From assembly GCA_041685935.1 (NCBI GenBank), contig JAWLES010000001.1, positions 1-62,291 of the forward strand: a DNA stretch of 62,291 nt, read 5' to 3'. Position 1 is the stretch's first letter; every line of letters starts with the position of its first letter. Shown piece by piece: positions 20,289 through 62,291 of this stretch. The notes under the pieces are model-generated. The model was not told the DNA's origin. It searched no databases and was given only the letters and a program-made list of their open reading frames with translations. Made by a program: the position numbers and the translations under genes. The stretch comes from Desulfobacteraceae bacterium (GTDB lineage: Bacteria > Desulfobacterota > Desulfobacteria > Desulfobacterales > Desulfobacteraceae).

Positions 20289-20311
20289 AAATAGTTACAT
20301 CAAAATCATTT

Positions 20312-20920: not shown

Positions 20921-21145
20921 ATTCCCACCTGATACAAAACTTTTCTTGTGAATTAAAGAGTTATTAATTTTTGTTTTTCATCGACTGATTCTAAAAAGGG
21001 TTTTGAAAAAGAACCTTAATGTTTTACACTATTTCAAATCAATTCAATGCTTTGTATTGAAAAGCCTCTGTTTTGGTATATAGTCTTTTAAAAAAACACC
21101 AATTACAACAGAGGGTGTTATTCAAAACCTGATTCCTTGACCATG

Positions 21146-22744
21146 TTAGGGACTAACATTTCTTTGATAAAGCACCACCTTATTTCTCCCGTCATGAATT
21201 GTTTTCATGACTTTGTATTTTTTTATTTGCGGTGATTGTAATGTTTTTTTTAATTTGAATATGAAGATATCCGGTTTTGTTTTGCGAAGGTTTTTTTGAA
21301 TGTTATTTTTTTTTGTGTTGTTTAGGTGAGAAATTTTTAAGTCTTTTTTGAAATTATCTTTACAATATAACTTATAGTAAAATACAGCGGTTTTGTCTGT
21401 AGTGAGTACTCTGTTTCCACGATCCGTTTTGTTTCGGGTCAGCCATTTTACGGCCTTTGGAACGGCGTCATCCCTTTCTATAACCGGCTCGAAGCTTTTT
21501 AATGCAGGTGCTGTAATCAAGGCGGCCATCAACAAAAGAATCATTTTTTTACGGCTGCCATGAAAGGCTTTGAACCACAATCTCTCTGCCCCGGCGCCAA
21601 TCCAGGGCAGCATAATAAAAGAGGGAATCAGCAGAAATCGTGTGGACAGAAAATCTTTTGCCAACAGAAAGTTATAGGCGAGTGCAATGAACAGCAGCCA
21701 CAGCCAGAGAAAAAATTTGCCGTGGGATACTGTTTTTGATTTGATTCCGAAATAAAGGGGGATACAGGATAAAACGAAAATGTTTTTGATCAGTATTTCA
21801 ACAATTCCGGCAGTGTATAGTAAAAATATGTAATGCCGGGACAGAGCTGCAAGGTTAAAGTGCAACCCTGAGAAAGGCGGATGGTTTTCCGCGGCTCTAA
21901 AGAAATGATAAATATCATGATATTGTTGAAGGAATTGGCCGGTGAAAATATTTGTCAGTTTGCCCCATATGGAGCTGAAACGATTAACCGAGAGGCTTTC
22001 CGGCCCGAAAAAATACAACAGAAAACCTGCGGCGGCAGCAGGTATGGCAGCCCATAGAAAAGCCCTCCAAAGATACAGCTTTTTTCCTTCTTTCCTGATA
22101 ATTCCAAGGCTTACCAGCACGGTGAAATAGAAAAAAAGAAGAATGCACCCTTCCACACGGAAGAGTATGGAGAGCCAAGCCAGGATGAAAGTGTATATAA
22201 ACAGCCTGTTGCAGGTCTGCCGGATTGACATCAGTGCAAAGCAGAGAAACCAGGCAGCGGTTAAAAGGAAAATAGGATCCCTGCTGACATAGAAGGACCA
22301 CTCATTTATTTGAGGCAGTGCGGCAAAAACAAGGCATGCCCAGAAAGCCGGACGTGTTCCTGCGGCAATCCTGGTGATATGGAACAGAGGAATCGTTGCA
22401 AGGACCATGCTGGTAATGGAAACAAAATAGCTCGCCATGATCCAGTCGGGAATGATTTTATGAACAGCCGTGAGAATAAGAGGATACAACGGCATGGGAT
22501 AAAGCTCTATGCCTTTTGCAAAGTTCCCTGCTGCATATTCCATTGCGGATCTGATGTAAAGGGTCCCGTCCATATTGATGGCTGCATCGTGCAGCATGAT
22601 CAAAAGAACTGTTTTGATAAAAAGGGAAACGGCCAGGGCAAAGGCAAGATAGATCCGGCTCTTTTTCTTTTCCGGGAGTCGGGAGAAAGACTCGCAGCCT
22701 CTTTTAAACAATGATTCAGCCGTGTTATTTGTCAAGGTCAGCAT
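21146..22744 (-). CDS. Polytopic GT-C glycosyltransferase (ArnT/PMT, GT39/GT83-like)
   Basis: 532 aa with more than 10 predicted TM segments, followed by a soluble Lys-rich C-terminal domain. The N-terminal loop and TM pattern are typical of ArnT-like undecaprenyl-phosphate-sugar transferases. Confidence 0.55.
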   Translation of the reverse strand: MLTLTNNTAESLFKRGCESFSRLPEKKKSRIYLAFALAVSLFIKTVLLIMLHDAAINMDGTLYIRSAMEYAAGNFAKGIELYPMPLYPLILTAVHKIIPDWIMASYFVSITSMVLATIPLFHITRIAAGTRPAFWACLVFAALPQINEWSFYVSRDPIFLLTAAWFLCFALMSIRQTCNRLFIYTFILAWLSILFRVEGCILLFFYFTVLVSLGIIRKEGKKLYLWRAFLWAAIPAAAAGFLLYFFGPESLSVNRFSSIWGKLTNIFTGQFLQQYHDIYHFFRAAENHPPFSGLHFNLAALSRHYIFLLYTAGIVEILIKNIFVLSCIPLYFGIKSKTVSHGKFFLWLWLLFIALAYNFLLAKDFLSTRFLLIPSFIMLPWIGAGAERLWFKAFHGSRKKMILLLMAALITAPALKSFEPVIERDDAVPKAVKWLTRNKTDRGNRVLTTDKTAVFYYKLYCKDNFKKDLKISHLNNTKKNNIQKNLRKTKPDIFIFKLKKTLQSPQIKKYKVMKTIHDGRNKVVLYQRNVSP

Positions 22745-47637: not shown

Positions 47638-48501
47638 TCAATCGAGATTGAACAGGATGTCGTTCTCCCTGTAGGCTTTTTCCAGCTTCTCCTGGTGTTC
47701 AGTGACGTCGTCTCCCTTTGTTTTGATCACTTCGTTTAAAAGATGGATGATCAGGCAGAGCATGGAAGAAGAGCTTTCATAAAACGGAATGGTTTTGGGC
47801 CGGGTGATAAGGTGGTGATGAGAGAACTGGATCAGCGGGCAGGCGATGCTGTCTGCAATCACAACGAGCTTCATTCCCAGCTGTTTGGCGTACTTTCCCA
47901 CCCGGATCAGCTCATTGGGATACCTTGAAATGGCCACAATCACAACCACGGAATCTTCACGCGCAACAGTCAGCCAGTCAAGTGAAGTCCTGTCACTTCC
48001 CTTAAGAATGTTTACATCCTTCCTGATTTTGGTCATGGCCCATCCCATGTAGTAGGCCGCATGATAGGAGAGTCTGGAGCCGACAATGTATACCGAGGAG
48101 CGGCTGCATAAAAGCGAAACGATTTTTTCTGCTTCGTCTCTGTCAATGGACTCGAGTAAAGCCTTCAGGTTGTCGATTTCCCTGGCAACCGTCAGTTCAA
48201 GCCCGTTTTCCCCGGTGTCGGCAATGCTCATCTCTTTTCGCTCAAGCAGGGTCAGTTCCGAGTCAATGAATTTTCTCAATTCGTTTTTAAACTCGGAGTA
48301 GGTGGAATAGCCGATTTGCCGGACGAACCTGACAACGGTGGCCTCACTTACACCTGCCTTGTCCGCAAGGTCTCTGGTGGCCAGAAAAACCGCCTTGGTG
48401 GGGTTCTCCAGAATAAACCGGGCCAGTTTTCTCCCTTTCGGGGTAAGCTCCTTCTCTTTTGCTTGTATGGCAAGGCTGAAAGATTTTTCTGAAAAGTTCA
48501 T
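47638..48501 (-). CDS. MurR/RpiR family transcriptional regulator (HTH + SIS)
   Basis: N-terminal HTH_6-type region (LATRDLADKAGVSEATVVRFVRQIGY). The C-terminal SIS domain has VYIVGSRLSY and VVVIVAISRYPNE. Confidence 0.85.
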   Translation of the reverse strand: MNFSEKSFSLAIQAKEKELTPKGRKLARFILENPTKAVFLATRDLADKAGVSEATVVRFVRQIGYSTYSEFKNELRKFIDSELTLLERKEMSIADTGENGLELTVAREIDNLKALLESIDRDEAEKIVSLLCSRSSVYIVGSRLSYHAAYYMGWAMTKIRKDVNILKGSDRTSLDWLTVAREDSVVVIVAISRYPNELIRVGKYAKQLGMKLVVIADSIACPLIQFSHHHLITRPKTIPFYESSSSMLCLIIHLLNEVIKTKGDDVTEHQEKLEKAYRENDILFNLD

Positions 48502-48531
48502 GGGATACCTGTGAAATTTTGGTACGATTTA

Positions 48532-48556
48532 TTTGTTGACAAGTTTTGTTACATAT
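48532..48556. promoter_or_regulatory. Shared 25-nt motif, copy 1 (rpiR / aor intergenic region)
   Basis: TTTGTTGACAAGTTTTGTTACATAT. It matches copy 2 at 51610-51634 at every position except one A/G. A degenerate third copy, AGTTTTGTTTTAACA, lies at 48575-48589. Confidence 0.6.
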
Positions 48557-48606
48557 GAAAGAAAAAAAGTCAATAGTTTTGTTTTAACAGCCCGAAAGGA
48601 GTTTTC

Positions 48607-50427
48607 ATGCAGTGTATTGATGTGGATCTTTCAGCAGGGACGGTGTCCCTGCATTCGCTGGATGACCGAATCCTGGAAAATTTTGTCGGAGGAAGCGGAA
48701 TCGGAGCCTGTATCGCCTGCCGGGAAAAACTCTGGAAGTATGACCCCTTATCAGCCGGAAACGTTCTTGTCTTTGCCGCAGGTCCGTTTACAGGTACGAA
48801 AATTCCATGTTCCGGAAGGCATTCTTTAACTGCCAGGTCTCCGCTCACCGGCCTTTTTGCCGAAAGCGACGTCGGCGGAAGATGGGGGACCGCGCTTGTG
48901 AAATGCGGATTTCATGTCATAACTGTAAGAGGTGCCTGTGACAGGCCTGTTTATCTGGAAGTTTCCCCTTCCGGGTGCAGGATACTCAATGCCGGTGAAA
49001 TATGGGGCATGGATACCTTTGATACCTCGGGCAGGCTTCAGGAAGTACACGGGGAAAAAACCGCTGTTTCGTGCATCGGACCTGCAGGGGAAAGGCTTGT
49101 GCGGTTAGCGTCAGTGATGCATGACGGCAGTGATGCCAGGGCTGCGGGAAGGTGCGGGCTCGGCGCTGTTATGGGGTCGAAAAAGCTGAAGGCGGTTGCA
49201 GTGGTTCGGGCAGGCAAAACAGTGGCAGGCAGGAACAGGGATCTGGAAAGAATGATACCGGCAATGCATCGGAAGGTTATGGACGCCGGAAAAGGATTGA
49301 GAAGCTGCGGGACCGCCGGAGGTTTTGTACAGCTTGAAAAAAGCGGGGATCTGCCGGTGAAAAACTTCACCGAAGGTGAATTCAGCTCGGCCGATCGCCT
49401 GGATGGTTCCGTGGTGTCTGAAAAGTACCTTAAAAAGAAGTACTCCTGCGGAGCCTGCCCTGTGGGATGCGGCCGTGTTGTTGAAATGAATGATGAACAA
49501 TTCGGAAGTGTGAAGGGAGCAGGGCCTGAATATGAAAGCACGGCATCACTTGGGAGTTACTGCATGGTGGATGACCTTGAGGCCGTGATAAAGGCGAATG
49601 ATCTTTGCAACCGGTACGGTATGGATACCATTTCCGCGGGTGCGGCGGTTTCCTTTGCCATGGAGGCGTTTGAAAAGGGATTGCTGACACCGGCTGATCT
49701 CGGAGGCGGGGACCTTCAATGGGGGGATGCCGGAAAAATGGTTCAGGTGGTTGAATCCATAGGCACGGCTGAAGGTATCGGCCGACTTCTCGGCATGGGG
49801 GTCAGGCATGCCGCGGAACGGCTTGGCAGCGGAGCGGACCGGTTCGCCATGCATGTCAAGGGACTTGAGCTTCCCGCCCATGACCCGAGGGCGTATTTCA
49901 GCACTGCGGTTTCCTATGCCACATCGAGCCGGGGGGCCTGCCACCTGGCCGGCATGACCCATGTCATTGAAGACGCAGTCACCGTGCCTGAAATCGGGAT
50001 CAGTGAGACCCTGCCACGCTTTTCCAACGAGGGGAAAGGGAGGGCCGCAGCCCGAATGCAGGACATGATGGGGATATACGATTCTCTGAAGATCTGCAAG
50101 TTCGTCACCGGTACCTTAACCTTATCAGAGCTTGCCGAATGCCATACCGCAGTGACCGGCATAAAATCAACTGCCGATTCCCTGATGAAAGCGGGCGAGC
50201 GGATATTCAACATCAAGCGGCTGTTTAATTTCAAGTGCGGCATGCCCGGGGCGCAGGACACACTCCCGGACCGGATTCTTTCCGAACCCAGGCCCGCCGG
50301 AAGCGCAGCCGGGAAATTGCCTGACCTTTCAAAGATGCTGAAAGAGTATTACAAGGCAAGGCAGTGGGATGAAAACGGCAATCCACTTGAATCCACGTTA
50401 AAAAGACTGGAGCTTGACAGGTTATGA
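48607..50427 (+). CDS. aor: Aldehyde:ferredoxin oxidoreductase family (tungstopterin enzyme)
   Basis: AOR N-terminal domain (VGGSGIGA, FAAGPFTG, GLGAVMGSKKLKAV), the [4Fe-4S] Cys motif CGACPVGCGR, and a family-typical length of 606 aa. Confidence 0.85.
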   Translation: MQCIDVDLSAGTVSLHSLDDRILENFVGGSGIGACIACREKLWKYDPLSAGNVLVFAAGPFTGTKIPCSGRHSLTARSPLTGLFAESDVGGRWGTALVKCGFHVITVRGACDRPVYLEVSPSGCRILNAGEIWGMDTFDTSGRLQEVHGEKTAVSCIGPAGERLVRLASVMHDGSDARAAGRCGLGAVMGSKKLKAVAVVRAGKTVAGRNRDLERMIPAMHRKVMDAGKGLRSCGTAGGFVQLEKSGDLPVKNFTEGEFSSADRLDGSVVSEKYLKKKYSCGACPVGCGRVVEMNDEQFGSVKGAGPEYESTASLGSYCMVDDLEAVIKANDLCNRYGMDTISAGAAVSFAMEAFEKGLLTPADLGGGDLQWGDAGKMVQVVESIGTAEGIGRLLGMGVRHAAERLGSGADRFAMHVKGLELPAHDPRAYFSTAVSYATSSRGACHLAGMTHVIEDAVTVPEIGISETLPRFSNEGKGRAAARMQDMMGIYDSLKICKFVTGTLTLSELAECHTAVTGIKSTADSLMKAGERIFNIKRLFNFKCGMPGAQDTLPDRILSEPRPAGSAAGKLPDLSKMLKEYYKARQWDENGNPLESTLKRLELDRL

Positions 50428-51608
50428 CACGATTCAGACCAAGAATTAAGCTTTCCGAAACAAGAGCGGACTGGCACCACCCTACATCCATCAGGTTCGG
50501 AGCAGGGCGTATAAAGGAAATTCCTCACGTATGCTGGAGTTCCGGAATTTCGTCACCGTTGATTATAACCGATCACGGGGTTGCAAAACTGCCCTTTGTT
50601 AAAAAAATCATTGAACTGAATCAAAAAGAGAGTATTTTTACATCAGTATTTTCCGAAATTTATTCAGAGCCGGATTTTGATACGGTGAAAGCCGGAGCGG
50701 AAAGACTCAGGACGGGAGGTCATGACGGCGTCATAGCCCTGGGGGGCGGAAGCGCCCTTGACGCGGCCAAGGCTGTTGTACTGGCTGCGTCAGCCGGTCC
50801 TTCCAGGATATGGGAGTTTTCAGCATGCATTTCCGGTACACCGCATGTAAAGAAGAACATCCTGCCGATCATAGCCGTTCCCACCACAGCCGGAACCGGT
50901 TCGGAGGTGGATGCCAACGCAGTGATCACCGACAACGTACAGGGAAGAAAAACCAGTATCGCCCATTCGGAACTTTTGCCGAAAATGGTCATCGCAGACC
51001 CGGAGCTTACCCGGGGGCTCATTCCGTATCTTACTGCAGCCACCGGCATGGACGCGCTTTCACACAATATCGAAGCATTGAGCTGTCCGGTTTTTCACCC
51101 GGTACTGGACGGGGTTTCCCTGCAGGGTATTCGGTACATCAAAGAGGGGCTTGTTCCAGCCTTTCACAGCGGTCGAAGCATCAAGGCGAGAACTTATACC
51201 ATGGCTGCTTCCATAATGGGAGCCATTGCATTTGAAAAGGGCCTTGGTGTGGGACATGCGGTTTCCCATGCCATTGGCGGCATGTTCAAGGTCCATCACG
51301 GAAGAGCTATTGGAACCCTGCTTCCCTTTGTTCTGATACTGAACCGGTCCAGGATAAAAGAGAAAATAGAGGATGCGGCACGATACCTTGATCTTCCGGG
51401 CCATGACTTTGATGCATTTGTGGATTGGGTGGCGGCGTTGAAGCTTGAATTCGGTATGCCGGCTAATCTCAGGGAGCTCGGTATCCGGGAGAGCCATATC
51501 CCGAAAATTGCCGAGAAGGCCCTTTCCGACGCCAATATTTTTACAAACCCGGTGTGCATGGATCAAAAGCGGCTTGAAGAATTTCTTTCGGGAGCGCTTA
51601 ACGGATAA
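50424..51608 (+). CDS. Iron-containing (type III) alcohol dehydrogenase
   Basis: GGGSALDAAKAV, PTTAGTGSEV and metal-binding His residues (ALSHNIEAL, HAVSHAIG). ATGA overlap with aor. Confidence 0.85.
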   Translation: MTRFRPRIKLSETRADWHHPTSIRFGAGRIKEIPHVCWSSGISSPLIITDHGVAKLPFVKKIIELNQKESIFTSVFSEIYSEPDFDTVKAGAERLRTGGHDGVIALGGGSALDAAKAVVLAASAGPSRIWEFSACISGTPHVKKNILPIIAVPTTAGTGSEVDANAVITDNVQGRKTSIAHSELLPKMVIADPELTRGLIPYLTAATGMDALSHNIEALSCPVFHPVLDGVSLQGIRYIKEGLVPAFHSGRSIKARTYTMAASIMGAIAFEKGLGVGHAVSHAIGGMFKVHHGRAIGTLLPFVLILNRSRIKEKIEDAARYLDLPGHDFDAFVDWVAALKLEFGMPANLRELGIRESHIPKIAEKALSDANIFTNPVCMDQKRLEEFLSGALNG

Positions 51609-51642
51609 AGTTGTTGACAGGTTTTGTTACATATTGTATTAA
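51609..51642 (+). promoter_or_regulatory. Shared motif copy 2, overlapping a candidate promoter for the mttB-like/opu unit
   Basis: AGTTGTTGACAGGTTTTGTTACATAT at 51609-51634, containing TTGACA (51614-51619), a 17-nt spacer and TATTAA (51637-51642). It begins 1 nt after the ADH stop. Confidence 0.5.
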
Positions 51643-51714
51643 AAACTGTCAGAGTCGAAAATCAAATTGTTTTCGGTGATCCGCCTTTTTTAATTTTCCA
51701 TACTGGAGGACGAT

Positions 51715-52929
51715 ATGGACAAAAAGCAGATTGAAACGTCAACATCACTTCTGGGGAAAAATACGGTAGAGATGCTGCTGCAGACCCACAAGGATTCCCT
51801 GTGGATGCTTGAAAATCTGGGCGTGGGGTGTGAACAGCCCGATATCATGGAAGCGTTCCGGGTGTATGAGGAAGACGGCAGGGCGATTGTATATGACGGC
51901 CGAGTATATATTACTGAAAGCCTTGTGTCTGAACTGATTGACAGAGCACCGGGCATAGATGAGTTTTTTGTTCCCAGAAACAGTTTTCTGATCGGCGGAA
52001 CAGCGCCGTACCTGTATGATGATGAAAAAAAGCAGGGCGGTAAAATGCCCACGGCAGAAGATGTTGCGACTATCGCGCGTATCGCGGAGAAAAGCGGTAT
52101 GGTCGCCGGAATGGGAAGAGGGGTAAAGCTCAAGGACGAGGTCGAGCAGATCAACCTGATGGCCGAGAACTGCACCAAGCCGCTGTATTTCGCTGCAACC
52201 AACGATAAGGCCATTGCCCGGGCCAAGGAACTGCATGCCGTCCGGAAAAACCTGATGGTGGTTTTCTGTCTGACCAGGCCGCCGCTCCAGGTGAACGAGA
52301 ATTTTTCCCAGGCGTTTGTGGACGTGGTGAAAAATGATCTGCCTGTGTTTATATCCGCCATGCCCCTTGCAGGCATCAGTGCGCCTTATTCCTACAACGG
52401 CGTGCTTTCCATGACCCATGCCGAAGTGCTGTTCGGTATATGCGCGGCCCAGCTCATCAACCCGGGATCCACGGTCATCCACGCGGGATTTCCCACGGTG
52501 GCCGACCCGAAGCATGAGTACAACCCGGATTACGGCTTGAAAAGTCATCAATTGTTGAATATACTGATGGCACACTTGAACATGATGCTTGATCTGCCCT
52601 CCATTCAGAGCGGGGGGACGACGAATGAAGAGCATCCCACGGAAAGGGCGTTTGAAGACGCCAGAAACGGGCAGGCACTTGCACTGAAATACGGGTTTCA
52701 TATGATTCGGCACCCGTTCGCTTTTCTCAAGCAGCTTGTGGATTTTTCCATTTACAAGCTTGAAAAGGCGATCGAAATCGCTGAAAACGTAAAACCGGAA
52801 GATGCTCCGGAGGTTGATATGCCCGAGTACGACGAGCGGGGGTTTCAATCCATACAGGAGCGACAGCTGCGGATGTACATGGATGATCCGCTGACCACTT
52901 CCAACATGAGCAAAATATTCATGTACTGA
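51715..52929 (+). CDS. MttB-superfamily methyltransferase, non-pyrrolysine type (possible quaternary-amine:corrinoid methyltransferase)
   Basis: By-eye alignment to M. barkeri MttB (recalled): PVFISAMPLAGISAPYSYNGVLSMTHAEVLFGICAAQLINPGSTV aligns with [45 protein letters not shown]. The Pyl position reads SGGTTNE with no in-frame TAG. At 404 aa it is shorter than typical MttB. Confidence 0.6.
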   Translation: MDKKQIETSTSLLGKNTVEMLLQTHKDSLWMLENLGVGCEQPDIMEAFRVYEEDGRAIVYDGRVYITESLVSELIDRAPGIDEFFVPRNSFLIGGTAPYLYDDEKKQGGKMPTAEDVATIARIAEKSGMVAGMGRGVKLKDEVEQINLMAENCTKPLYFAATNDKAIARAKELHAVRKNLMVVFCLTRPPLQVNENFSQAFVDVVKNDLPVFISAMPLAGISAPYSYNGVLSMTHAEVLFGICAAQLINPGSTVIHAGFPTVADPKHEYNPDYGLKSHQLLNILMAHLNMMLDLPSIQSGGTTNEEHPTERAFEDARNGQALALKYGFHMIRHPFAFLKQLVDFSIYKLEKAIEIAENVKPEDAPEVDMPEYDERGFQSIQERQLRMYMDDPLTTSNMSKIFMY

Positions 52930-53032
52930 TTTCTCCCGGATTTTTCAGGGGAAATCGGCCGGAAAAAATCTTTTCAGGAGAATCGCCACTGGTTTACTAA
53001 ATATACGGTAACTTTTTCAAAGGAGGTGGGAA

Positions 53033-54517
53033 ATGAAAACCAAGGTTCCGATTTGCCCTGCATGCAAAAAGGAATTACCTGAAGATGCAACCCAGTGTAC
53101 CTTTTGCTCGACAGAGGTGACAAAGCCGAAGTTCAGGGAGATTTTTTCCTGGAAGCTCTCTGACCGTTTTTTTCTGTTTTCCGTAATGCTGCTGTTTACG
53201 ACGTTTTTTCTTCCGTGGTTTCCCGGCCAGTTCCTTTACAGGGACGAACCCTTTTCCGCCTTTCAAATGCTTTTGAATCTATATGACCTGGAGGTGGGAT
53301 TTCTTGAATCTTTCAACATTCTCCGAATGTCCCAGATGGTTCCGCTTTTCGCCATCGTGGTCTTCTTTTTGATCTATATCGGGGATTATCTTAGAACCAC
53401 GCCGTATCCGGGCATTTTCATGTTTGTGATTATTCTGTACGGCGCAATCTCCTTCTTTTTTGACAATTTTTCAACGATAAATGCCTGGGTTGCCACGGCG
53501 GCATTGTTCGTGGTTGTTTTTTATTATTACAAATCCGGTATAAAAAAGGGAACAATCGGCAGGACATCGTATTACATGTTTTTTGTGCTGTTTCTGATAT
53601 CCTTGTTCCTGTATCTTTTCCATCTTTCCCAGACCTTTTATACAAGACTGGAAACCATTAATATAAACGAAACATACGGTTTTTTCAGTGCATGGATCAT
53701 TGTAAGCGCCATGATTGTTGTTGCCTTTTTCCGGTACATGGTGTCAACCGAGGATTTCTGGTGTCTTCTGGGAGTTTTCATATTTTCCCTGCTTGCATAT
53801 TCCAGTGTGGTCGAGCCCATTTTTGTGTCCGGTCCGTTACGGTTCTTTGCGGACAATTTCAGTAAAACCGGAATTCAGACGCTGGTGCACCTGAAAATCG
53901 TGGGAATTGCCCTTGCCATCGCCATTGTGGCCGGTGTCCCCCTAGGGGTTTACATTACCCGGCACCCTTTGGCCGCCAAAACCATTCTGTACATTTCAAG
54001 TGTCCTGATTACGATTCCCAGTATCGCCATGTTCGGTTTCATGATGCCTATCCTGTCGTCCATAGACAAGAACCTGGATATGGTCCAGGGGATCGGAATC
54101 GGTACGGTTCCGGCGGTGACGGCGCTGGCGCTGTATTCTCTTCTGCCGATTATACGGAACACGTACATTGCCCTGCAGAGTGTGGATACATCGATGATTG
54201 AAGCCGGAATCGGCATGGGGATGACCAGTTTCCAGCTTCTCGTCCGGGTGGAGCTGCCGCTGGCCGCTCCGATCATTATGGCCGGCGTACGGACATCTGT
54301 CGTCATGGGCGTTGCTATAGCGGCACTGGCGGCATATATCGGAGCCGGCGGCCTTGGCGACTTCGTTGTGCAGGGACTGCAGCGCTCAACCAATGCGTCG
54401 GTGCTGGCAGGCGCCATCAGCATGGGCCTTTTGGCCATCATCTGTGATATATTTCTGGAAAAGGCGGAGGACTGGGTAACCCCCACGGGATTAAAAGTGA
54501 AACAGGCAATGGAATAA
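53033..54517 (+). CDS. ABC permease (OpuCB/ProW-like BPD domain) fused to an N-terminal zinc-ribbon plus polytopic extension
   Basis: The C-terminal ~215 aa form a typical glycine betaine/choline permease domain (IPSIAMFGFMMPIL...EAGIGMGMTSFQLLVRVELPLA). The N-terminal ~270 aa contain CPAC...CTFC followed by about 7 hydrophobic segments. A strong RBS, AAAGGAGGTGGG, is present. Confidence 0.75.
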   Translation: MKTKVPICPACKKELPEDATQCTFCSTEVTKPKFREIFSWKLSDRFFLFSVMLLFTTFFLPWFPGQFLYRDEPFSAFQMLLNLYDLEVGFLESFNILRMSQMVPLFAIVVFFLIYIGDYLRTTPYPGIFMFVIILYGAISFFFDNFSTINAWVATAALFVVVFYYYKSGIKKGTIGRTSYYMFFVLFLISLFLYLFHLSQTFYTRLETININETYGFFSAWIIVSAMIVVAFFRYMVSTEDFWCLLGVFIFSLLAYSSVVEPIFVSGPLRFFADNFSKTGIQTLVHLKIVGIALAIAIVAGVPLGVYITRHPLAAKTILYISSVLITIPSIAMFGFMMPILSSIDKNLDMVQGIGIGTVPAVTALALYSLLPIIRNTYIALQSVDTSMIEAGIGMGMTSFQLLVRVELPLAAPIIMAGVRTSVVMGVAIAALAAYIGAGGLGDFVVQGLQRSTNASVLAGAISMGLLAIICDIFLEKAEDWVTPTGLKVKQAME

Positions 54518-54536
54518 ACCGGGGAGATAAAGAATT

Positions 54537-55643
54537 ATGGGTACGATGCTAAAACTGGACAAAGTGACAAAAATATATCCGGGAACGGATTTCCGGGCTG
54601 TTGATGAACTCTCGTTCGAGCTTGAAGAGGGAGAAATCTGTATTCTGGTAGGTCCTTCCGGATGCGGCAAAACCACAGCCATGAAGATGATCAACAGGCT
54701 GCATCCCGTTACAAGCGGGAAGATATATATAGACGGCCAGGATGTCTCGAGTATGGATACCATTCAGTTGAGAAGACGGATCGGATACGTGATTCAGAAC
54801 GTGGGGCTGTTTCCCAATATGACCATCGCGGAAAACATCAGTGTAATCCCGAACCTGCTCAAATGGGACAAAAAGAAAATCAACGAAAGGGTGCACAGTC
54901 TTCTGGAAATCGTGAATCTTTCCGCTGAAGAGTACAGGGACCGGTATCCAAGGGAGCTTTCAGGCGGGCAGCAGCAGAGGATAGGTGTTGCGCGCGGAAT
55001 GGCCGGAGATCCGCCCATCATGCTCATGGACGAGCCTTTCGGCGCCATTGATCCCATCAACCGGGAGCATCTGCAGAATGAATTTTTAAAAATTCAGGAA
55101 AAGGTGAAAAAGACCATCGTGTTTGTCACACACGATATCGACGAAGCTATTAAAATGGGTGACAAAATCTGCCTTCTGCAGGACGGAAAACTGGTTCAGT
55201 TCGCTTCCCCCGAGGAGATGCTCACCCACCCGAAAAATGATTTCGTCCGGGATTTTGTGGGCGGCGACCGGACCATAAAACGGCTGAACCTTTTCTCCAT
55301 CAGTAAGGTGATGAGGGATGACCCGCCTTTGGTTCAGGCTTCAGCCGGTCTTGAAGAGGCCAGAAGCAGGTTGTCCGAATACGGGACCGATTATCTCGTG
55401 GTCCTGGATGAGAACGGCAGGCTGGCCGGACTTGCGGCAGACGAAGATCTTCAAAAAAAGGGGGGTGCAGTGGCGGATGTGGTACAGAGCACCAGAGCTT
55501 ATCTTGACGGCACGGCAAGTCTGAAAGAGGCTCTTTCGGGACTTTTCACCCATGACACCGGATTTCTTATCGTGGTGGACGGCGACAAAAAGGTCACGGG
55601 CTGGCTTGATACCAATGATATCAAAAAGGCGCTCAAGGACTGA
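54537..55643 (+). CDS. Glycine betaine/carnitine/choline ABC transporter ATP-binding protein with tandem CBS domains
   Basis: Walker A GPSGCGKTT, LSGGQQQRIGVAR and LMDEPFGAID. The C-terminal ~120 aa are a CBS pair. OpuCA/OsmV-like. Confidence 0.9.
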   Translation: MGTMLKLDKVTKIYPGTDFRAVDELSFELEEGEICILVGPSGCGKTTAMKMINRLHPVTSGKIYIDGQDVSSMDTIQLRRRIGYVIQNVGLFPNMTIAENISVIPNLLKWDKKKINERVHSLLEIVNLSAEEYRDRYPRELSGGQQQRIGVARGMAGDPPIMLMDEPFGAIDPINREHLQNEFLKIQEKVKKTIVFVTHDIDEAIKMGDKICLLQDGKLVQFASPEEMLTHPKNDFVRDFVGGDRTIKRLNLFSISKVMRDDPPLVQASAGLEEARSRLSEYGTDYLVVLDENGRLAGLAADEDLQKKGGAVADVVQSTRAYLDGTASLKEALSGLFTHDTGFLIVVDGDKKVTGWLDTNDIKKALKD

Positions 55644-55699
55644 CGATCAAAGGTTGTTTGCCTTGAAAAAAACAATCAATCAGACAAGGGATTGTAAAA

Positions 55700-56470
55700 A
55701 TGAATTCAAAGGTTTTTTTTCAGATTGCAAGAAAAGGGCTGCCCGCCATTGTTACGGTGGCGGTCATTATCTTCCTTTATAAAACCTACGGGGCCTGGGA
55801 ATACACCGTGGAAAATCTGCCGGAATTTTTCAAGCTGACATACGAACACTTGGTGCTGGTGCTGATCACCATGTGTTTTTCCATAAGTATCGGTGTTACC
55901 CTGGGAACCCTTATGACAAGAGAAGGGTGGGAGAAAATTTCTCCCGTGATCATGGCGGTGGTCAATGTATGGCAGTCGATCCCGTCCCTGGGTGTAATCG
56001 CGCTTGCATACGGTATTCTTCCGATGATCGGTCTTTCGGGAATCGGTTTGATTCCGGCACTCATTGCTATTTTTACTTTTTCCGTGGCTCCGGTGGTGAG
56101 AAATACGTATGCCGGAATCGAGTCGGTGAGTTCGGATATAAAAGAGGCTGCAACAGGTATGGGCATGACCAAACAGCAGATCCTCTTCCGGATCGAGCTG
56201 CCGAACGCGCTTCCAATCATTATGGGCGGTGTCAGAACCTCCACGGCCCTTGTTGTGGGGACGGCCCCGCTGGCCTTCCTTATCGGCGGAGGAGGCCTGG
56301 GGTTCTGGATTTTCACGGGCATAGCCCTTGTGGACATGGGCATCATGACGGCCGGAGCCGTGCCTGTGGCCCTGATCGCCATGCTGTTCGATTTTATTTT
56401 GGAAATTGTGGAAAAAATTATTGTGAGCAGAGGAGTACAGGCGGACGAGGCCCAGCTGGCGGCATTGTAA
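55700..56470 (+). CDS. Glycine betaine/carnitine/choline ABC transporter permease
   Basis: BPD-type permease with EAATGMGMTKQQILFRIELPNALP (EAA loop). Confidence 0.85.
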   Translation: MNSKVFFQIARKGLPAIVTVAVIIFLYKTYGAWEYTVENLPEFFKLTYEHLVLVLITMCFSISIGVTLGTLMTREGWEKISPVIMAVVNVWQSIPSLGVIALAYGILPMIGLSGIGLIPALIAIFTFSVAPVVRNTYAGIESVSSDIKEAATGMGMTKQQILFRIELPNALPIIMGGVRTSTALVVGTAPLAFLIGGGGLGFWIFTGIALVDMGIMTAGAVPVALIAMLFDFILEIVEKIIVSRGVQADEAQLAAL

Positions 56471-56537
56471 GGTGCGCCGGGTTTTGCTGTCTGTTGTGTG
56501 TATATATAAATTTTAAAATTGTAAGGAGGTATGTCAA

Positions 56538-57461
56538 ATGAAAAGGTTGACCTTTATTTTTACCACACTGGCATTTTTGCTGGCATCCACGGTTTCTTTC
56601 GCAGGGCCGGGTGTGAAGGTGGCATCCAAAAATTTTACGGAACAGCTGGTCTTAGGTCAGATCATGGTGCAGCTGCTGAAAGACAGGGATATTCCGGTGG
56701 TGGACAAGACAAACCTGGGCGGCACCCAGGTGAACCGCAATGCCCTGAAAGAGGGACAGATCGATGTGTACATGGAATATACCGGAACCGCATGGATTAC
56801 CCATTTCGGCAAAGAGGAGGTTGTTCGTGATTCAAACGAGCTTTATGAAAAAGTCAAGACCCTTGACCGGGAAAAGAATAATTTGGTCTGGCTTGAACCC
56901 TGTAAGTTCAACAATACTTATGCCATTATCATGAAAGAGGAGACGGCTGCGGAACACAACATCTCCACGCTTTCCGAATGGGCTGAGTTCATCGAGGAAA
57001 ATCCGGGGAAAATGACCGTAGCCGTGGGCCCGGAGTTTTATTCCAGAGTGGATGGGTTTAAAGGTATGATGGGCCATTACAACCTTGAGTTCGGAGAGGA
57101 TATACCGGATTCGGATGTGAGCAAGATGGAAATCGCCCTGACCAAAAAATCTGTAAGGGACGGCAAGGCCATGTGCGGTATGGCGTTTGCCACTGACAGC
57201 GCCATCATCGACTATGGACTTCGGGTTCTCGAGGATGACAAGAATTATTTTCCCATTTACAATCCAGCCCCGGTTGTGCGCAAGGAGGTCCTGGACCAGT
57301 ATCCAAAGCTGGCGTATACCCTGAACCAGATCGGGACTTCCCTGGATACCGCCACCATGCAGCGGCTGAACTACCGGGTTAACGCAAACGGAGAAAAGCC
57401 TTCATCCGTTGCCCAAAGCTGGCTTGAAGGCGTGGGGCTGATAACTAAAAAACGGAAATAA
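56538..57461 (+). CDS. Quaternary-amine (glycine betaine/choline) substrate-binding protein, OpuAC-fold (OpuCC/OsmX-like)
   Basis: Signal peptide. VASKNFTEQLVLGQIM, DVYMEYTGTAW and YAIIM are typical of OpuCC-type binding proteins. Confidence 0.85.
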   Translation: MKRLTFIFTTLAFLLASTVSFAGPGVKVASKNFTEQLVLGQIMVQLLKDRDIPVVDKTNLGGTQVNRNALKEGQIDVYMEYTGTAWITHFGKEEVVRDSNELYEKVKTLDREKNNLVWLEPCKFNNTYAIIMKEETAAEHNISTLSEWAEFIEENPGKMTVAVGPEFYSRVDGFKGMMGHYNLEFGEDIPDSDVSKMEIALTKKSVRDGKAMCGMAFATDSAIIDYGLRVLEDDKNYFPIYNPAPVVRKEVLDQYPKLAYTLNQIGTSLDTATMQRLNYRVNANGEKPSSVAQSWLEGVGLITKKRK

Positions 57462-57498: not shown

Positions 57499-57537
57499 AC
57501 AAACCCGGAGAAGTTACAGCCTCCGGGTTTGTTTTTT
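57499..57537. terminator. Bidirectional intrinsic terminator
   Basis: Perfect 10-bp stem AAACCCGGAG / CTCCGGGTTT with a 10-nt loop. An A-run lies 5' and a T-run 3'. It sits between the opu operon end and the convergent ParB-like gene. Confidence 0.8.
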
Positions 57538-58472
57538 CAGTATCTGACAAGTCCGAATAGCCGCCTGATCAATCCAAGGGTCCTTCGAGCCGGGCTTTTA
57601 AAAATCCTGGTGTACTCGGCCACGATACTTTCGGCTTCGTAGCTGTCGAACTGCTCCATGTCCTTTTCAGTGAGCTTTTCCCTGAACCGCATCACCCAGA
57701 TATAAAAGTCGGTGGCGGTCCTGTGTGGAAAGTATTCCATGATCCGGTATTTTTTAATGATTTCCACAAACGGCATGTAAACGGTATCATACCAGGAGAT
57801 TGCAGCCTCTTGGACGGAAACCTCCTTGCCGTCCCGATTCTCTAAATAATGCCGGTGAATCTGGATCTGTTTCATCAAAAAGGGGTATCCCCCGATCCGG
57901 GTCAATGTCAGATCCGGGTTCCGGGCGGTTTTCAGACCTGTTTCCTTTAAAAACTTGTGATATGTTTCCAGGATGGCAAGCTCCTCAATATCAGTATCCG
58001 TGTTTAAAGAGACGTCACAGTCGTATTCAAACACCCGCGCTTCAACTGATAGGATGTTCCGTGCTCTTGCCACTGAAATCCGGTGGTGGCCGTCTTTTAC
58101 AAAATACACATTGCAGACCTTGTACAGTTCAACCGGCGGCAGGTCCCGTTTTGCGTCAATAGCCCTTTCCACGTTTTTCCACCGTTCCCTGAGACTTTCA
58201 TCGAGCGGAAAAAAATGGCGGGTGAATCCCTTGTACCTGCCCTGGCTTCCGATAATCGAATCAAGGCGCACGGATTTAATTCCGATATCTTTAACCAGCA
58301 GAAGTTCCAGCCGTTCTTTGACATCGTCGAACGGCAGAAGCTGCTTGGTCTTCCGAAAGGGGAATCCCTTGATTTCTTCTATGAAGGCTTTGGTCATGGC
58401 GTTTGAAAAATTGGAATCAAGGCGCTCAGCCATGTTCGCCCGGCTTTCGGCTCTGCTTTTGAAAAGTGGCAT
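57537..58472 (-). CDS. ParB/Srx-fold domain protein (DGHHR motif), function unknown
   Basis: 311 aa. The central region VELYKVCNVYFVKDGHHRISVARA resembles the ParB N-terminal/sulfiredoxin-fold nucleotide-binding motif. The rest is unrecognised. Confidence 0.45.
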   Translation of the reverse strand: MPLFKSRAESRANMAERLDSNFSNAMTKAFIEEIKGFPFRKTKQLLPFDDVKERLELLLVKDIGIKSVRLDSIIGSQGRYKGFTRHFFPLDESLRERWKNVERAIDAKRDLPPVELYKVCNVYFVKDGHHRISVARARNILSVEARVFEYDCDVSLNTDTDIEELAILETYHKFLKETGLKTARNPDLTLTRIGGYPFLMKQIQIHRHYLENRDGKEVSVQEAAISWYDTVYMPFVEIIKKYRIMEYFPHRTATDFYIWVMRFREKLTEKDMEQFDSYEAESIVAEYTRIFKSPARRTLGLIRRLFGLVRY

Positions 58473-58671
58473 TGATTGATATTCTTGTATAGGGTTCGGT
58501 TACCTGATTTTCTATTGCAATTTGTTTTAAGATATAATAGTGAAACAGTTTATTGCAATATAAAAAACAGGTTCCGGGTGATTTTTTATAAATGACATGA
58601 TTTGTTTCATATGTAATCCGAAAACCTGAACCGGTGAAAATAATAGAAAAATAATACATGCGGGGTTACGG

Positions 58672-61600
58672 ATGTGTGGAATCGTGGCTTACTTCGGAAA
58701 TGCACCGAACAGCTTGAGCAGAGTTGTGACGGGGATGTCGGCGATTATATACCGGGCGCCGGACAGCACGGGAATTGCGAAATTCGGGGATATGGCCGAT
58801 CCGATCAGCCTGAGGAAAAATCTCGGCAGCGTGGCCGGGCTTTTTGAAGTTCTGGAAAACAATCCTATCAACAGACCTTGTGACCGGAATGTGTTGTCCA
58901 TATGGCAGTCAGGCGACATGGACCCCCCGAGGATGCAGAAACGCCTGATCGAATATGAAGGGCTTCCCCTGGAGATGTTCAACAATATTCAGTCCGGAAG
59001 GGCATCATGGCCGGTTTTTGAAGACCTTATCTCAAGATATTCAACCAACCAGATGTCGGTTTATCCCGGCTGCCCGGGAAATCCCTATTCTCTTCAAAGA
59101 TTCACGGTAAGGTCCAGAAATGATTTGCGAAGAGTCGTGGAAACCATGCTGAAAACCTACGACCTTTCCTTTGTGGCAATTAAATCCATTTTCCGGGCTC
59201 ATCTGGAAAAAGGGATCAACGCCCTTGGAAAAGCAAAGCCGGTCAAGGCGAGCGTGGCTGATATTTACAACGCTTTTGATCACCTGTTCCAGTTGATTTT
59301 TGAAGAGTACCGGCCTGTTGAGTTTACCCGGCAGAGTTATAAACGGGTGCATATGAACCCGTTTGCCAAAAAGTATATCTGGCAGCTGATATCCGGAATT
59401 CCTGTTAAAATCCCGGAAGATTTTGATAATGACGGAATCAAAAACCTTTTCCGCCTGCTGGATGAAGCGCTTCTGTCCAGAATCCATACCGATTCCGGAA
59501 TATCCGAAGAGATTCAGAAAAACCTGAACTATTCCCTGAAAGGGGATTATGAATCAGCCTCCATCGGGTGGTCCACGCTTTATCATGCGGAAAAAGGGGT
59601 GAATGTATACGGAAGAGCCTCAGCAGCCGTGCTGGAATGGATGCAGAAAAACGAAATATTGCAATCCATGTCCATGAGTATTTCTTCGGGAAGCAGCGCA
59701 GCTTTGTCAGCCCCCATGGGCGTTACCGGTCCAAAGTGCCTGAATTACCTGGTACAGCCGGTTCTCACACAGGGAAGATGGGCGCTTCAGTCTGAAGTGA
59801 CCTTGAAAAACGCTCATCCTTTTGTGGATGAAAACCGGAATCGGAGCATTGTATTGAACGGACAGTTTGCCGCTTCAGTGGAGGACGAGATGCGGGATTT
59901 TCTTTCCGGCGTGGTCAGGGTGCCGTTCAGGAGCGACAATTCGTCCGAATACTTCGCCCTTTTGTGGGGGTACTACTTTGATGTGCTTAAAAATGAAAAA
60001 CGGCAGTTTCAGCAGGTCAAGGACCAGGTTGAGAATGGACTTGAAGAGTATGCAGTCGGCAGCAACACCATAAACTACCAGATCTTCAAGCATATAAAAG
60101 ACAAGGAAGACACGGAACTTGATGAAGTTGCCTTTATAGAGGCTGCCAGGCGTTTTACAAAAAACGGGGGCCAGATTGCCGTGGCCGGAATCAGTGTGGA
60201 ATCCCCCCGCACCATTTATGCGGTATCCAACAACAGGCCCCTTTTCATCGTCAGGCGGAGAGAAACCCACGACTATATGGTGGTGTCGGATATAAACGCC
60301 TCTTTGGGACTGTTTTCCCAGCTGGAAATCATGGAGGTAACCAAGGCATACGAGAGTCTTTTAAAACAGAGGGACCTGGAAATAAAGCAGCTGAACCGGC
60401 AGCAGGCACCCAAGGAGGAAATAGAAAAGTGCAGGCAGGACCGGGATGCGGAAATCGACAGTGTGCTGACACGGTTTGCGGTGGATGTGTATGCCCTGGA
60501 AGGGGAAAACCTGTTTGCCAGGATCGCCACCGAATTCAAAAACAGCAGCGTGGAGCGTACAGTGGAGATTACCGATTTTGAGGGAAAGGTTCTTCATGAT
60601 ATCGAGCCCTACCGGATTAACCTGACTCCACCCCATGTGCACAAGGACCTGGACAAGTCGTTTTACAAGACCCATTTGGAGGAGGTTCCCGAACTCCTTG
60701 AAAATATGGTGGAAAATGTGCTCAACTCGGGTTCCAACATCAACGGTTTCAGCATCAATGAAAAATATCTCAAAAGACGGTTCGGCGAGAACCTGGGCGG
60801 AATCAAGAGGATTTTCATTGCAGGAATGGGCACTTCGTACCACGCCGCGCTCGGGGTTTCCGGTTTTTTCAGGAGCATGTTCCCTGATACAAGGGTGATT
60901 GTGCTTCAGCCGGTGGAAATCGATCTTATGAAAGGAATGTTTGTCCCGGAAGAGGATCTTGTACTTCTTTTAAGCTGGAGCTCCACCACCGCTGAAATGG
61001 TAAAGCTTTCCAAGGAGCTTTCCAAAACAAATGTACTGTTTATCGGGGTAACTGAAAAAATTTTCGGGGATATGGCGCTTGTGGCTCGGAAAAGCTGCGG
61101 CGTGGTATACGTTATGAGTGGCGAGGAAGTTACCGTTTCAGCTGTTAAAAGTACATTCTGCTGCATGATGAGTCTTGTCCTGTTCAGCCTTTATGTATGC
61201 AGGGACATGATACGTCAGCAGGTGGACTGGAGTGTCACCGGCGGGATCATGCAGGTTTCCCACTATCTGAAATCCATGGCTGATGACGGGGATCTTGAAG
61301 ACAGGGCGGCCAAGCTGGCCTCTCAGTATGCAGACTCGGACGGGTTTATCCTGATTGATGCGGTTCACTCCACCGGAGCGGCCCGCGAGGCGGTTTTGAA
61401 AATGGAGGAGATGACCTGGTCCCTGGTCGGCAGAGCAATTGATTACGATGATGTGAATCTCGGTCTTTTAAAAGATGCAGGCAGGCGGAGCTTTCTTGTG
61501 ATAAACGCAACCTGTTCCAAAAGGTTCTCCAGCGCACTGGAGCTGATGAAAACGCTGCACATGGAGGATATACCGTTTTGCGCAGTTGCCTTTGACGGAA

Positions 61601-62291
61601 CGGAAACCGACAGAATCAGAGAGTATTCAGCCGGAAACCTTGTTCTCCTGCCCAAGGTGGAGGACAATCTGCAGCCGTTTGTGGACCTTATGTTTTATTA
61701 CATCCTGGCATTCCATTTCGGCAGGGCTGCAGGCAGAAAAGCTGATGATTATCCGCGAAACCGGGCCAAATCCGTTACTACCTCCCGATCTGTCGGGTAT
61801 GAACAATCAAGCTCCCAGGGTGAGTTCTTTCTTCTGCGGCACAAGGAGCAGCTTTTCGGAGAGATCGGGCTGGATTCTCAGGATATGGCAATGACAACAC
61901 ACCTGGAGAAGGTGATTCGCAACGAGCCCTTTGCAGGCCGGATACAAGAGATTAAAAAGCTGGCATCCGTTATCAGGGAGGAGGATGCCTTTGAAAGGCT
62001 TGTGAGCTTTGACGGCAAATTCCATCAGGATTTTGCCCGAACCGTTTTTTCAGAAGGGCGGGAGACCAGGGTCAAGTTCGTACCGCTTGATGCAAAGGCG
62101 GAGGCTGCAGTCCGGAATGCAGCGGCAAGATTGAAAAGGTTCGTACCCTTTCAGGTCGGGATAGTTGACCGTTCCGAGACATTGCCCGTTTCAGACGGTG
62201 ATACCGTCAATATCGCAGTATCTTCATCCGGGTTTACCGGTAAACCGGAGCGGCTCCAAAGACTTGATGGTGACAGGACATTTTATTTCGG
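58672..62291 (+). CDS. Giant GlmS-like protein (class-II Ntn glutamine amidotransferase + two SIS domains, with large insertions and a C-terminal extension); 3' partial
   Basis: I checked the frame codon by codon from the ATG at 58672 to the window end and found no stop (1,206 codons plus 2 nt). It is absent from the ORF track. N-terminus MCGIVAYFG...YRAPDSTGIA. Then GRWAL...NAHPF...LNGQ...SDNSSEY; SIS1 IFIAGMGTSYH and LSWSSTT; SIS2 ILIDAVHSTGAAREAVLKMEE; GlmS-type tail PRNRAKSVTT at ~aa 1030-1036. At least 170 further residues follow. Confidence 0.75.
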   Translation, partial: MCGIVAYFGNAPNSLSRVVTGMSAIIYRAPDSTGIAKFGDMADPISLRKNLGSVAGLFEVLENNPINRPCDRNVLSIWQSGDMDPPRMQKRLIEYEGLPLEMFNNIQSGRASWPVFEDLISRYSTNQMSVYPGCPGNPYSLQRFTVRSRNDLRRVVETMLKTYDLSFVAIKSIFRAHLEKGINALGKAKPVKASVADIYNAFDHLFQLIFEEYRPVEFTRQSYKRVHMNPFAKKYIWQLISGIPVKIPEDFDNDGIKNLFRLLDEALLSRIHTDSGISEEIQKNLNYSLKGDYESASIGWSTLYHAEKGVNVYGRASAAVLEWMQKNEILQSMSMSISSGSSAALSAPMGVTGPKCLNYLVQPVLTQGRWALQSEVTLKNAHPFVDENRNRSIVLNGQFAASVEDEMRDFLSGVVRVPFRSDNSSEYFALLWGYYFDVLKNEKRQFQQVKDQVENGLEEYAVGSNTINYQIFKHIKDKEDTELDEVAFIEAARRFTKNGGQIAVAGISVESPRTIYAVSNNRPLFIVRRRETHDYMVVSDINASLGLFSQLEIMEVTKAYESLLKQRDLEIKQLNRQQAPKEEIEKCRQDRDAEIDSVLTRFAVDVYALEGENLFARIATEFKNSSVERTVEITDFEGKVLHDIEPYRINLTPPHVHKDLDKSFYKTHLEEVPELLENMVENVLNSGSNINGFSINEKYLKRRFGENLGGIKRIFIAGMGTSYHAALGVSGFFRSMFPDTRVIVLQPVEIDLMKGMFVPEEDLVLLLSWSSTTAEMVKLSKELSKTNVLFIGVTEKIFGDMALVARKSCGVVYVMSGEEVTVSAVKSTFCCMMSLVLFSLYVCRDMIRQQVDWSVTGGIMQVSHYLKSMADDGDLEDRAAKLASQYADSDGFILIDAVHSTGAAREAVLKMEEMTWSLVGRAIDYDDVNLGLLKDAGRRSFLVINATCSKRFSSALELMKTLHMEDIPFCAVAFDGTETDRIREYSAGNLVLLPKVEDNLQPFVDLMFYYILAFHFGRAAGRKADDYPRNRAKSVTTSRSVGYEQSSSQGEFFLLRHKEQLFGEIGLDSQDMAMTTHLEKVIRNEPFAGRIQEIKKLASVIREEDAFERLVSFDGKFHQDFARTVFSEGRETRVKFVPLDAKAEAAVRNAAARLKRFVPFQVGIVDRSETLPVSDGDTVNIAVSSSGFTGKPERLQRLDGDRTFYF

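Follow-up and report, generated by a model that had tools for sequence, protein, structure and literature searches.

We analyzed a window comprising the whole stretch of 62,291 nucleotides at the start of contig JAWLES010000001.1 from Desulfobacteraceae bacterium (assembly GCA_041685935.1), which ends inside an open frame for a giant protein resembling GlmS. The original prediction had described this frame as unlisted, stop-free for at least 1,206 codons from its ATG and encoding a product that starts MCGI with a nucleophile Cys. Translation bore this out: the product begins MCGIV, its Cys is codon 2, and the frame exits the window, with the 3′ part of the gene lying beyond position 62291. The frame was absent from the list of open reading frames (ORFs) because that list omits ORFs running off an end. 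A homologue of 1,505 aa, P0003, is 80% identical to the window protein, and about 300 codons are thus missing from the window; a second homologue, P0001, is 99% identical, is partial as well and probably comes from the same metagenome-assembled genome. Upstream of the giant gene lie a divergent gene for a 311-aa orphan protein (u311) and a probable choline/glycine-betaine catabolic island (positions 47638–57461). The features are listed in Table 1.

Table 1. Features of the giant gene and its surroundings in the window (amino acid [aa] numbers refer to the window protein, residue equivalents to E. coli GlmS)
Feature	Position	Strand	Basis or remark
RpiR-type regulator	47638–48501	−	Upstream context
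Aldehyde:ferredoxin oxidoreductase	48607–50427		Upstream context
Fe-alcohol dehydrogenase (Fe-ADH)	50424–51608		Upstream context
MttB-like protein, 404 aa (short)	51715–52929		E just 4e-14 to MtgB
OpuA-type betaine ABC transporter, four genes; its 494-aa permease is unusually long	53033–57461		Upstream context
u311, conserved orphan, 311 aa, divergent from the giant gene	57537–58472	−	
Giant GlmS-like gene, 5′ 80% (1,206 codons) of ~1,505	58672–62291	+	1,505-aa P0003, 80% identical
N-terminal nucleophile (Ntn) core, first strands, aa 1–51; Cys at 58675–58677; YRAPDSTG motif	58672–58824	+	AlphaFold2 and homologue alignment
Insertion 1, all-helical domain of ~310 aa within the Ntn fold, aa 52–362	58825–59757	+	AlphaFold2
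Ntn core continued, aa 363–549, VVSDINA motif	59758–60318	+	AlphaFold2 and alignment
GRWA, Arg73/Trp74 equivalents, aa 369–370	59776–59781	+	
LNGQF, Asn98/Gly99 equivalents, aa 396–397	59857–59862	+	
NSSEY, Ser at the Asp123 position	59941–59943	+	
Insertion 2, charged helical hairpin H550–576 + H581–602, aa 550–604	60319–60483	+	AlphaFold2
Last Ntn strands E603–608, E614–623, E626–635, E647–650 and linker	60484–60648	+	AlphaFold2
Isomerase/synthase module 1, two SIS subdomains, aa ~660–1037	60649–61782	+	Hidden Markov model (HMM), AlphaFold2, Foldseek
Module 1 phosphate loop SWSSTT	60973–60990	+	
Module 1 Lys485/Glu488 equivalents	61399–61410	+	
Module 1 Asp at the His504 position	61450–61452	+	
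Module 1 tail PRNRAKSVTT with Lys603 equivalent	61753–61782	+	
Linker and start of module 2, aa 1038–1206	61783–62291	+	Remainder, including the His loop, beyond the window
Module 2 first strand VKFVPLD	from 62071	+	

The window protein is homologous to GlmS/GFAT. As originally proposed, it is collinear with E. coli GlmS up to the PRNxAKSVT tail: residues 628 to 1036 align with positions 218 to 599 of the 601-position NCBIfam GlmS model PRK00331 (E = 2.2e-40), Pfam SIS gives a single match at residues 712 to 835 (E = 3e-7), and the tail itself, PRNRAKSVTT, occupies residues 1028 to 1037. The best PDB sequence match, obtained with family member P0010 as the query, was human GFAT1 (E = 2.6e-24), for which a second, weak match covered the Ntn motifs GRWA...NAHP...LNG. 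The Pfam GATase_6 match fell below threshold (E = 0.077), and the GlmS family score was reached neither for PRK00331 (138.7 bits against a curated cut-off of 381) nor for TIGR01135 (123 bits against 418).

Structure predictions extended these matches. AlphaFold2 models were built from 66-sequence alignments; that of residues 1 to 665 of the window protein had a predicted local distance difference test (pLDDT) of 85.6 and a predicted template-modeling score (pTM) of 0.88, and that of residues 640 to 1505 of P0003 (866 residues, covering both isomerase modules) a pLDDT of 87 and a pTM of 0.91. In Foldseek searches, the former matched the GlmS glutaminase domain 1xff (E = 5e-6; template-modeling [TM] score to target, 0.63), as well as PurF, EgtC and AsnB (E = 3e-3 to 1e-2), while the latter matched GlmS/GFAT isomerase domains (E = 1e-13; TM score to target up to 0.87). 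The N-terminal domain is accordingly modeled as the four-layer Ntn fold with an N-terminal Cys that defines class II amidotransferases. PurF, AsnB and EgtC have this Ntn fold in common with the giant protein, but their acceptor domains differ and none carries the family-specific insertion. The SIS-only relatives, namely, the fructoselysine-6-phosphate deglycase FrlB, AgaS, the archaeal glucosamine 6-phosphate (GlcN-6-P) deaminase and the structures 3fj1, 8eol, 2aml and 3g68, gave weak sequence and Foldseek matches; they share the tandem-SIS fold and the phosphate loop, but they lack the Ntn domain, are homodimers of ~330 to 370 aa and lie further from the giant protein in sequence than GlmS and GFAT do. 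The HMM, PDB and Foldseek matches all uphold the reading of a giant GlmS-like Ntn amidotransferase/SIS protein. No curated family in Pfam, NCBIfam or PADLOC reached its cut-off for the giant protein, PADLOC returned no defense-system match for it or for its 311-aa neighbor, and our literature searches found no description of a giant GlmS-like family, in keeping with the earlier remark that the architecture was not recognized as that of a characterized enzyme.

The order of parts is that of GlmS/GFAT: the Ntn domain with its N-terminal Cys comes first, then the isomerase domain with two SIS subdomains, and then the PRNxAKSVT tail. Unlike GlmS/GFAT, however, the giant protein is 2.5 times as long, has its Ntn fold interrupted by a helical domain of 310 aa and by a helical hairpin, and has an internal tail that is followed by what appears to be a degenerate second isomerase module with a His loop. 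The insert of about 300 aa that had been noted before the RWA/NAHP segment corresponds to the all-helical insertion 1, the helices of which lie at residues ~54 to 360 between strands 45–51 and 364–369 of the model. Insertion 1 alone, searched against 1.84 billion representatives, gave 43 hits, and 42 of these fell at the matching position of proteins of ~1,450 to 1,880 aa or their fragments. The exception, matched at residues 458 to 652, was P0158, a 3,083-aa metagenomic fusion (locus L090, 10001–19252) with 26% identity over 1,132 aa (E = 1e-79). By this search, insertion 1 is unique to the giant family. The Ntn core also holds a helical sub-insertion at residues ~426 to 495, and the charged, coiled-coil-like segment described within the amidotransferase domain is modeled as the hairpin of insertion 2. 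The tail is the least confident segment of the AlphaFold2 model (pLDDT < 50). Beyond it, full-length homologues continue for ~470 aa and those of a long subclass for ~790 aa; the at least 170 residues reported past the tail are indeed present and are now read as a linker and the first strand of a second isomerase-like module.

We scored the catalytic positions across 65 homologues of 33 to 50% identity, using E. coli GlmS numbering throughout. The catalytic roles of Cys1, Glu488, His504 and Lys603 have been reviewed (PMC9272926), and His504/His607 of one GlmS subunit completes the site of the neighboring subunit (PMC3224219). In the glutaminase domain, every homologue with an intact N terminus (59/59) had Cys1, and Arg73, Trp74, Asn98 and Gly99 were invariant (65/65), as had been predicted; the position of Asp123, mapped through a HMMER alignment to GFAT1, was Ser in 65/65, and the "SD" previously counted as a retained glutaminase motif is a different one. 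Asp123 of GlmS binds the α-amino group of glutamine, and with Ser in its place the glutaminase site is not fully canonical. The His77 position was likewise Gln in all 65. In module 1, Lys485, Glu488 and Lys603 were invariant (65/65), as were Ser349 and Thr352, and Ser347 was kept too; the Gln348 position was always Trp, the Glu351 position was Thr in 64 homologues and Ala in one, and the Ser401 position was Gly or Ala in every member. The replacements of SQSGET by SWSSTT and of ELKHGP by DVNLGL were seen in the alignments, the window protein reading DYDDVNLGL where GlmS has its ELKHGP loop. At the His504 position module 1 had Asp, Glu, Asn or Gln and never His (0/65), so the reported loss of the ring-opening His holds for this module; it does not hold for the whole protein, since the corresponding loop of module 2 has His in 64/65.

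The combination of fixed substitutions (Asp123 to Ser, Gln348 to Trp and His77 to Gln) with invariant catalytic residues suggests an active enzyme of altered specificity. A noncatalytic sensor or regulator is a different way to read altered ligand-contact residues: such a pseudoenzyme, with glutamine and/or a phosphosugar as ligand, would regulate methylated-amine or nitrogen metabolism, and its large family-specific helical insertions would be protein-interaction surfaces. The frequent pairing of the gene with an RpiR regulator (helix-turn-helix plus SIS) and its position in one clade beside PII, Amt and GlnD genes would suit this role. Nonetheless, the nucleophile, the oxyanion hole, the Schiff-base Lys and the catalytic Glu are invariant over more than 60 sequences of the surveyed divergence, which is atypical of pseudoenzymes and weakens this explanation, and domain searches found no DNA-binding or signaling output domain. 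We regard a pseudoenzyme as quite unlikely.

The secondary structure of module 2 in the AlphaFold2 model repeats the β-α-β pattern of module 1, and hhalign aligned the two modules collinearly over 274 to 331 columns (E = 4e-5 to 6e-5). Since a search of the PDB with the module-2 profile gave no match, P0158 was used as a bridge. The profile matched residues 1463 to 1787 of P0158 (E = 1e-9), and this region in turn matched the E. coli GlmS isomerase domain (E = 7.5e-11), with IHAEA...WHGPLAAVD of P0158 aligned to IHAEA...KHGPLALID of GlmS, which contains His504; IHAEAQLNDSAWHGPLAAVD of the P0158 module-2 segment aligns with the His504 loop. Inspected by eye, the module 2 consensus lacks the phosphate loop, the LKxxE motif and the PRNxAKSVT tail. 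Judged from these comparisons, module 2 represents a degenerate second copy of the GlmS isomerase module, and the catalytic residues appear to be divided in a complementary manner, with module 1 keeping all but the His and module 2 keeping the His alone. The same division recurs in P0158, and, judging by the pTM of their joint model, the two modules pack against each other in a defined way. Because the GlmS His acts across the dimer interface, the complementary split, its recurrence in P0158 and the confident two-module model lead us to infer that the giant protein may be a pseudo-dimer in a single chain, with both modules contributing to one composite active site.

Among the candidates scored in a protein-database search, 237 reached E ≤ 1e-3. 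Of the best 120, nearly all full-length relatives were 1,483 to 1,538 aa long or belonged to a subclass of ~1,825 to 1,850 aa, at 38 to 82% identity to the window protein, and the only database names were "SIS domain-containing protein," "hypothetical protein" and "glucosamine 6-phosphate synthetase-like"; some fragments are named "FrlB-like" by JGI. When one genome per species was scanned, 163 species genomes proved to contain relatives, and the 80 listed all belong to Desulfobacterota, including Desulfobacterales, Desulfohalobiaceae/Desulfovermiculus, Desulfatiglandales, Desulfacinum hydrothermale, D. infernum, Desulfospira joergensenii and the Delta 3 symbiont of the gutless worm Olavius algarvensis. 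As seen here, the giant family occurs essentially only in sulfate-reducing Desulfobacterota. The longer subclass, of about 1,820 aa, which includes both Desulfacinum isolates, carries an extra C-terminal domain of ~310 aa (residues 1511 to 1831 of P0027) at the 3′ end of the giant gene (L024, L031, L032, L033, L039, L041, L080 and L083); this extension had no Pfam match and was never found as a stand-alone gene. P0075 (1,077 aa) was considered as a natural split of the protein and rejected, because its assembly is full of fragmented MttB genes and a frameshift artefact is more likely.

The gene neighborhood was surveyed by calling ORFs in 80 species-level loci and the window, clustering them by BLASTP and annotating representatives within 10 kb of the giant gene. 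MttB, corrinoid-protein, pterin-methyltransferase, OpuAC, MmgE/PrpD, RpiR or Sox-like genes were present in 55/80 loci; where at least six other genes had been called, 47/63 loci carried at least one of them and 38/63 carried MttB. By gene, MttB was found in 42 loci, OpuAC in 19, MmgE/PrpD in 17, a B12-binding corrinoid protein and RpiR in 11 each, and a pterin-binding methyltransferase, DAO and SoxA-like genes in 10 each; as a measure of enrichment these counts are qualitative. The immediate same-strand upstream gene was a member of the methylated-amine set or an Fe-ADH in 35 loci (among them MmgE/PrpD in 11, MttB in 9, OpuAC in 5, pterin methyltransferase in 4, Fe-ADH in 3 and B12-binding protein in 2). 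Five loci (L015, L016, L043, L074 and L078) have the array MttB, B12-binding, Pterin_bind, (MmgE/PrpD), giant gene, and L018, L020, L059 and L085 have partial or permuted forms of it. The co-directional placement of the giant gene with MttB, corrinoid-protein and pterin-methyltransferase genes is thus conserved. A gene set similar to that of the window flanks orthologues of just 38 to 56% identity, in rearranged order. For the MttB adjoining the giant gene, the nearest match is MtgB, a methyltransferase of glycine betaine (E = 2.5e-68), and Desulfobacterium is reported to convert glycine betaine to dimethylglycine via MtgAB (PMC6716910).

Several loci hold further genes around the giant gene. 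Downstream of the giant gene, an MttB gene is recurrently followed by a gene of ~255 aa resembling S-adenosylmethionine-dependent methyltransferases (L030, 5843–6610; equivalents in L072, L082, L085 and L088), for which the NCBIfam match to CpaM, the "corrinoid protein-associated methyltransferase," is weak (E = 9e-4). A role of the giant protein as the missing corrinoid reductive activase was considered and rejected: the consensus has neither an Fe-S Cys motif nor an ATPase motif and only two conserved Cys. In one clade (L034, 3524–15501; L006, 2701–15501) the co-directional genes are an MttB-like gene (404 aa), an AsnB-like gene, DAO, a metallo-β-lactamase-fold gene, a second MttB-like gene (404 aa), the giant gene and a CN_hydrolase gene, the start of which overlaps the stop codon of the giant gene. 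No corrinoid protein is encoded nearby, and hence the short MttB-like proteins of this clade may not be corrinoid methyltransferases.

The latter arrangement bears on whether the enzyme could run in the deaminase or deglycase direction, as FrlB, AgaS and GlmD do, releasing an amine from an amino-sugar or Amadori-type phosphate while the Ntn domain hydrolyzes another amide, e.g., a γ-glutamyl or N-methylated one arising in methylamine metabolism. Linked CN_hydrolase, AsnB-like and DAO genes, the Sox/Mgd-like genes found downstream of the giant gene in some other loci and the "FrlB-like" names of fragments would fit, and the changes at Asp123, Thr76 and His77 suggest a donor other than free L-glutamine. 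Nevertheless, the Trp74 gate and the GlmS-type tail are kept, which points to coupled ammonia channeling rather than two independent activities, and we hold the deglycase or deaminase direction to be unlikely.

P0158 bears on the ancestry of the family. It shares with the giant proteins the insertion, the hairpin, the layout of modules 1 and 2 and the complementary His pattern. It differs in a 340-aa N-terminal extension, which makes its Cys internal as called, in keeping Asp123, in being fused to an LbH region with a weak resemblance to GlmU and to a PGM/PMM (GlmM-like) mutase, and in having sugar-kinase fusions and no MttB genes as neighbors. These neighbors are giant fusions themselves, of 3,848 aa, of 2,117 aa with β-CASP, and of 1,860 aa with PfkB and GHMP kinase. 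The mutase/LbH fusion and the sugar-kinase neighbors suggest that the wider family started out from amino-sugar-phosphate chemistry. The same fusion, together with collinear GlmS homology and the retention of Cys1, Glu488 and Lys603, could be taken to mean that the giant protein is simply the organism's housekeeping GlmS, making GlcN-6-P from fructose 6-phosphate (Fru-6-P) and glutamine, with insertions added. Four lines of evidence speak against this: the score of 139 bits against curated cut-offs of 381 to 418; the altered sugar and glutamine contacts, i.e., Gln348 to Trp, Glu351 to Thr (64/65), Ser401 to Gly/Ala and Asp123 to Ser; a distribution limited to Desulfobacterota in the 80 genomes listed of 163; and the location of the gene within catabolic MttB/OpuA methylated-amine operons, in contrast to the cell-wall context of GlmS/GFAT. 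We therefore consider a housekeeping GlmS very unlikely.

Taken together, the giant protein is most likely a catalytically active amidotransferase of altered donor and acceptor specificity that works with methylated-amine catabolic genes. More specifically, we consider it probable, although well short of certain, that it is a GlmS-derived amidotransferase with an in-cis composite site serving anaerobic betaine/choline-type catabolism; that pathway is the most likely one because MttB/corrinoid/pterin-methyltransferase/OpuA clusters include the gene, often as their last member. In such an enzyme, the N-terminal Cys of the Ntn domain would hydrolyze an amide donor (glutamine or a glutamine-like amide), and the ammonia would move past the conserved Trp74 gate into isomerase module 1. 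There, a phosphorylated keto substrate, held by the retained Ser/Thr phosphate loop, would be aminated and isomerized by the equivalents of Lys603, Glu488 and Lys485. The His that GlmS borrows from its partner subunit would be supplied in cis by the fused module 2, so that one chain would imitate the GlmS dimer with a single composite active site.

Several points weigh against this proposal. We know of no step in betaine catabolism that needs a ketose-phosphate amidotransferase. The changes at Asp123, Thr76, His77, Gln348, Glu351 and Ser401 could mean that GlmS-type chemistry is gone from one or both sites. The hhalign probability for the pairing of modules 1 and 2 is just 65 to 69%, and the module-2 profile alone had no hit among PDB sequences. 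Desulfobacterales are rich in MttB paralogues, and about one-quarter of the well-flanked loci lack methylated-amine genes. Even so, the housekeeping, sensor and deglycase/deaminase explanations are all less well supported than an amidotransferase of methylated-amine catabolism. A bolder form of the proposal is that the protein is a new enzyme of anaerobic quaternary-amine (betaine/choline) catabolism in sulfate reducers, a single-chain GlmS "heterodimer" with a composite site that uses a noncanonical amide donor and a phosphorylated acceptor other than Fru-6-P, in which the invariant Trp that takes the place of Gln348 next to the phosphate loop might contact a trimethylammonium or other nonsugar group. 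If true, a pathway so far taken to comprise methyltransferases and oxidases only would gain a new reaction; we offer this reading only tentatively and find it doubtful as a whole.

The 311-aa gene is divergent from the giant gene, as stated in the original prediction, but its ParB/Srx label is unsupported: by eye, u311 has the motif VKDGHHRISVAR, which is DGHHR-like and reminiscent of ParB/Srx-fold proteins, and searches of NCBIfam, PADLOC and the PDB gave no support, nor did Pfam, in which the best match had E = 0.11 and was to unrelated families. u311 recurs beside OpuAC in 10 other genomes, and its membership in the giant-gene system is uncertain; the informative neighbors are the MttB, corrinoid-protein and OpuA genes rather than u311. 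The 199-bp AT-rich intergenic region between the two divergent genes contains two exact copies of TATTGCAAT (core palindrome ATTGCAAT), at 58513–58521 and 58551–58559, 38 bp apart. The pair is a possible operator; across the window TATTGCAAT is not enriched (18 matches against 19 expected, allowing up to one mismatch). A promoter and terminator scan of the intergenic region stayed at chance level. Rfam gave no match at gathering score in the whole window and none at E ≤ 1 in 58350–58800, and therefore no known RNA family, such as the glmS ribozyme or a riboswitch, lies in the giant-gene leader. Elsewhere in the window, the G+C content dips to 0.354 at 20001–22000, against ~0.48 in the remainder, over a 532-aa ORF (21146–22744, minus strand); this region may be foreign DNA.

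GlmS is a textbook enzyme and drug target, the active site of which needs a His from the partner subunit. What is new here is an uncharacterized family derived from GlmS in which the isomerase module is duplicated and the gene context is catabolic. The family appears to have hard-wired the GlmS dimer into one chain by duplicating a module and dividing the catalytic residues between the copies; if this is true, complementary degeneration would have taken place naturally within a fused pseudo-dimer. The giant protein is also a conserved and unexplained member of the MttB, corrinoid-protein and OpuA clusters through which glycine betaine and choline are turned over in marine and hypersaline sediments, which suggests an unrecognized step or control point in methylated-amine cycling. 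Since the family is present in the cultured strains Desulfospira joergensenii, Desulfacinum hydrothermale and Desulfacinum infernum, its role is directly testable in these organisms.

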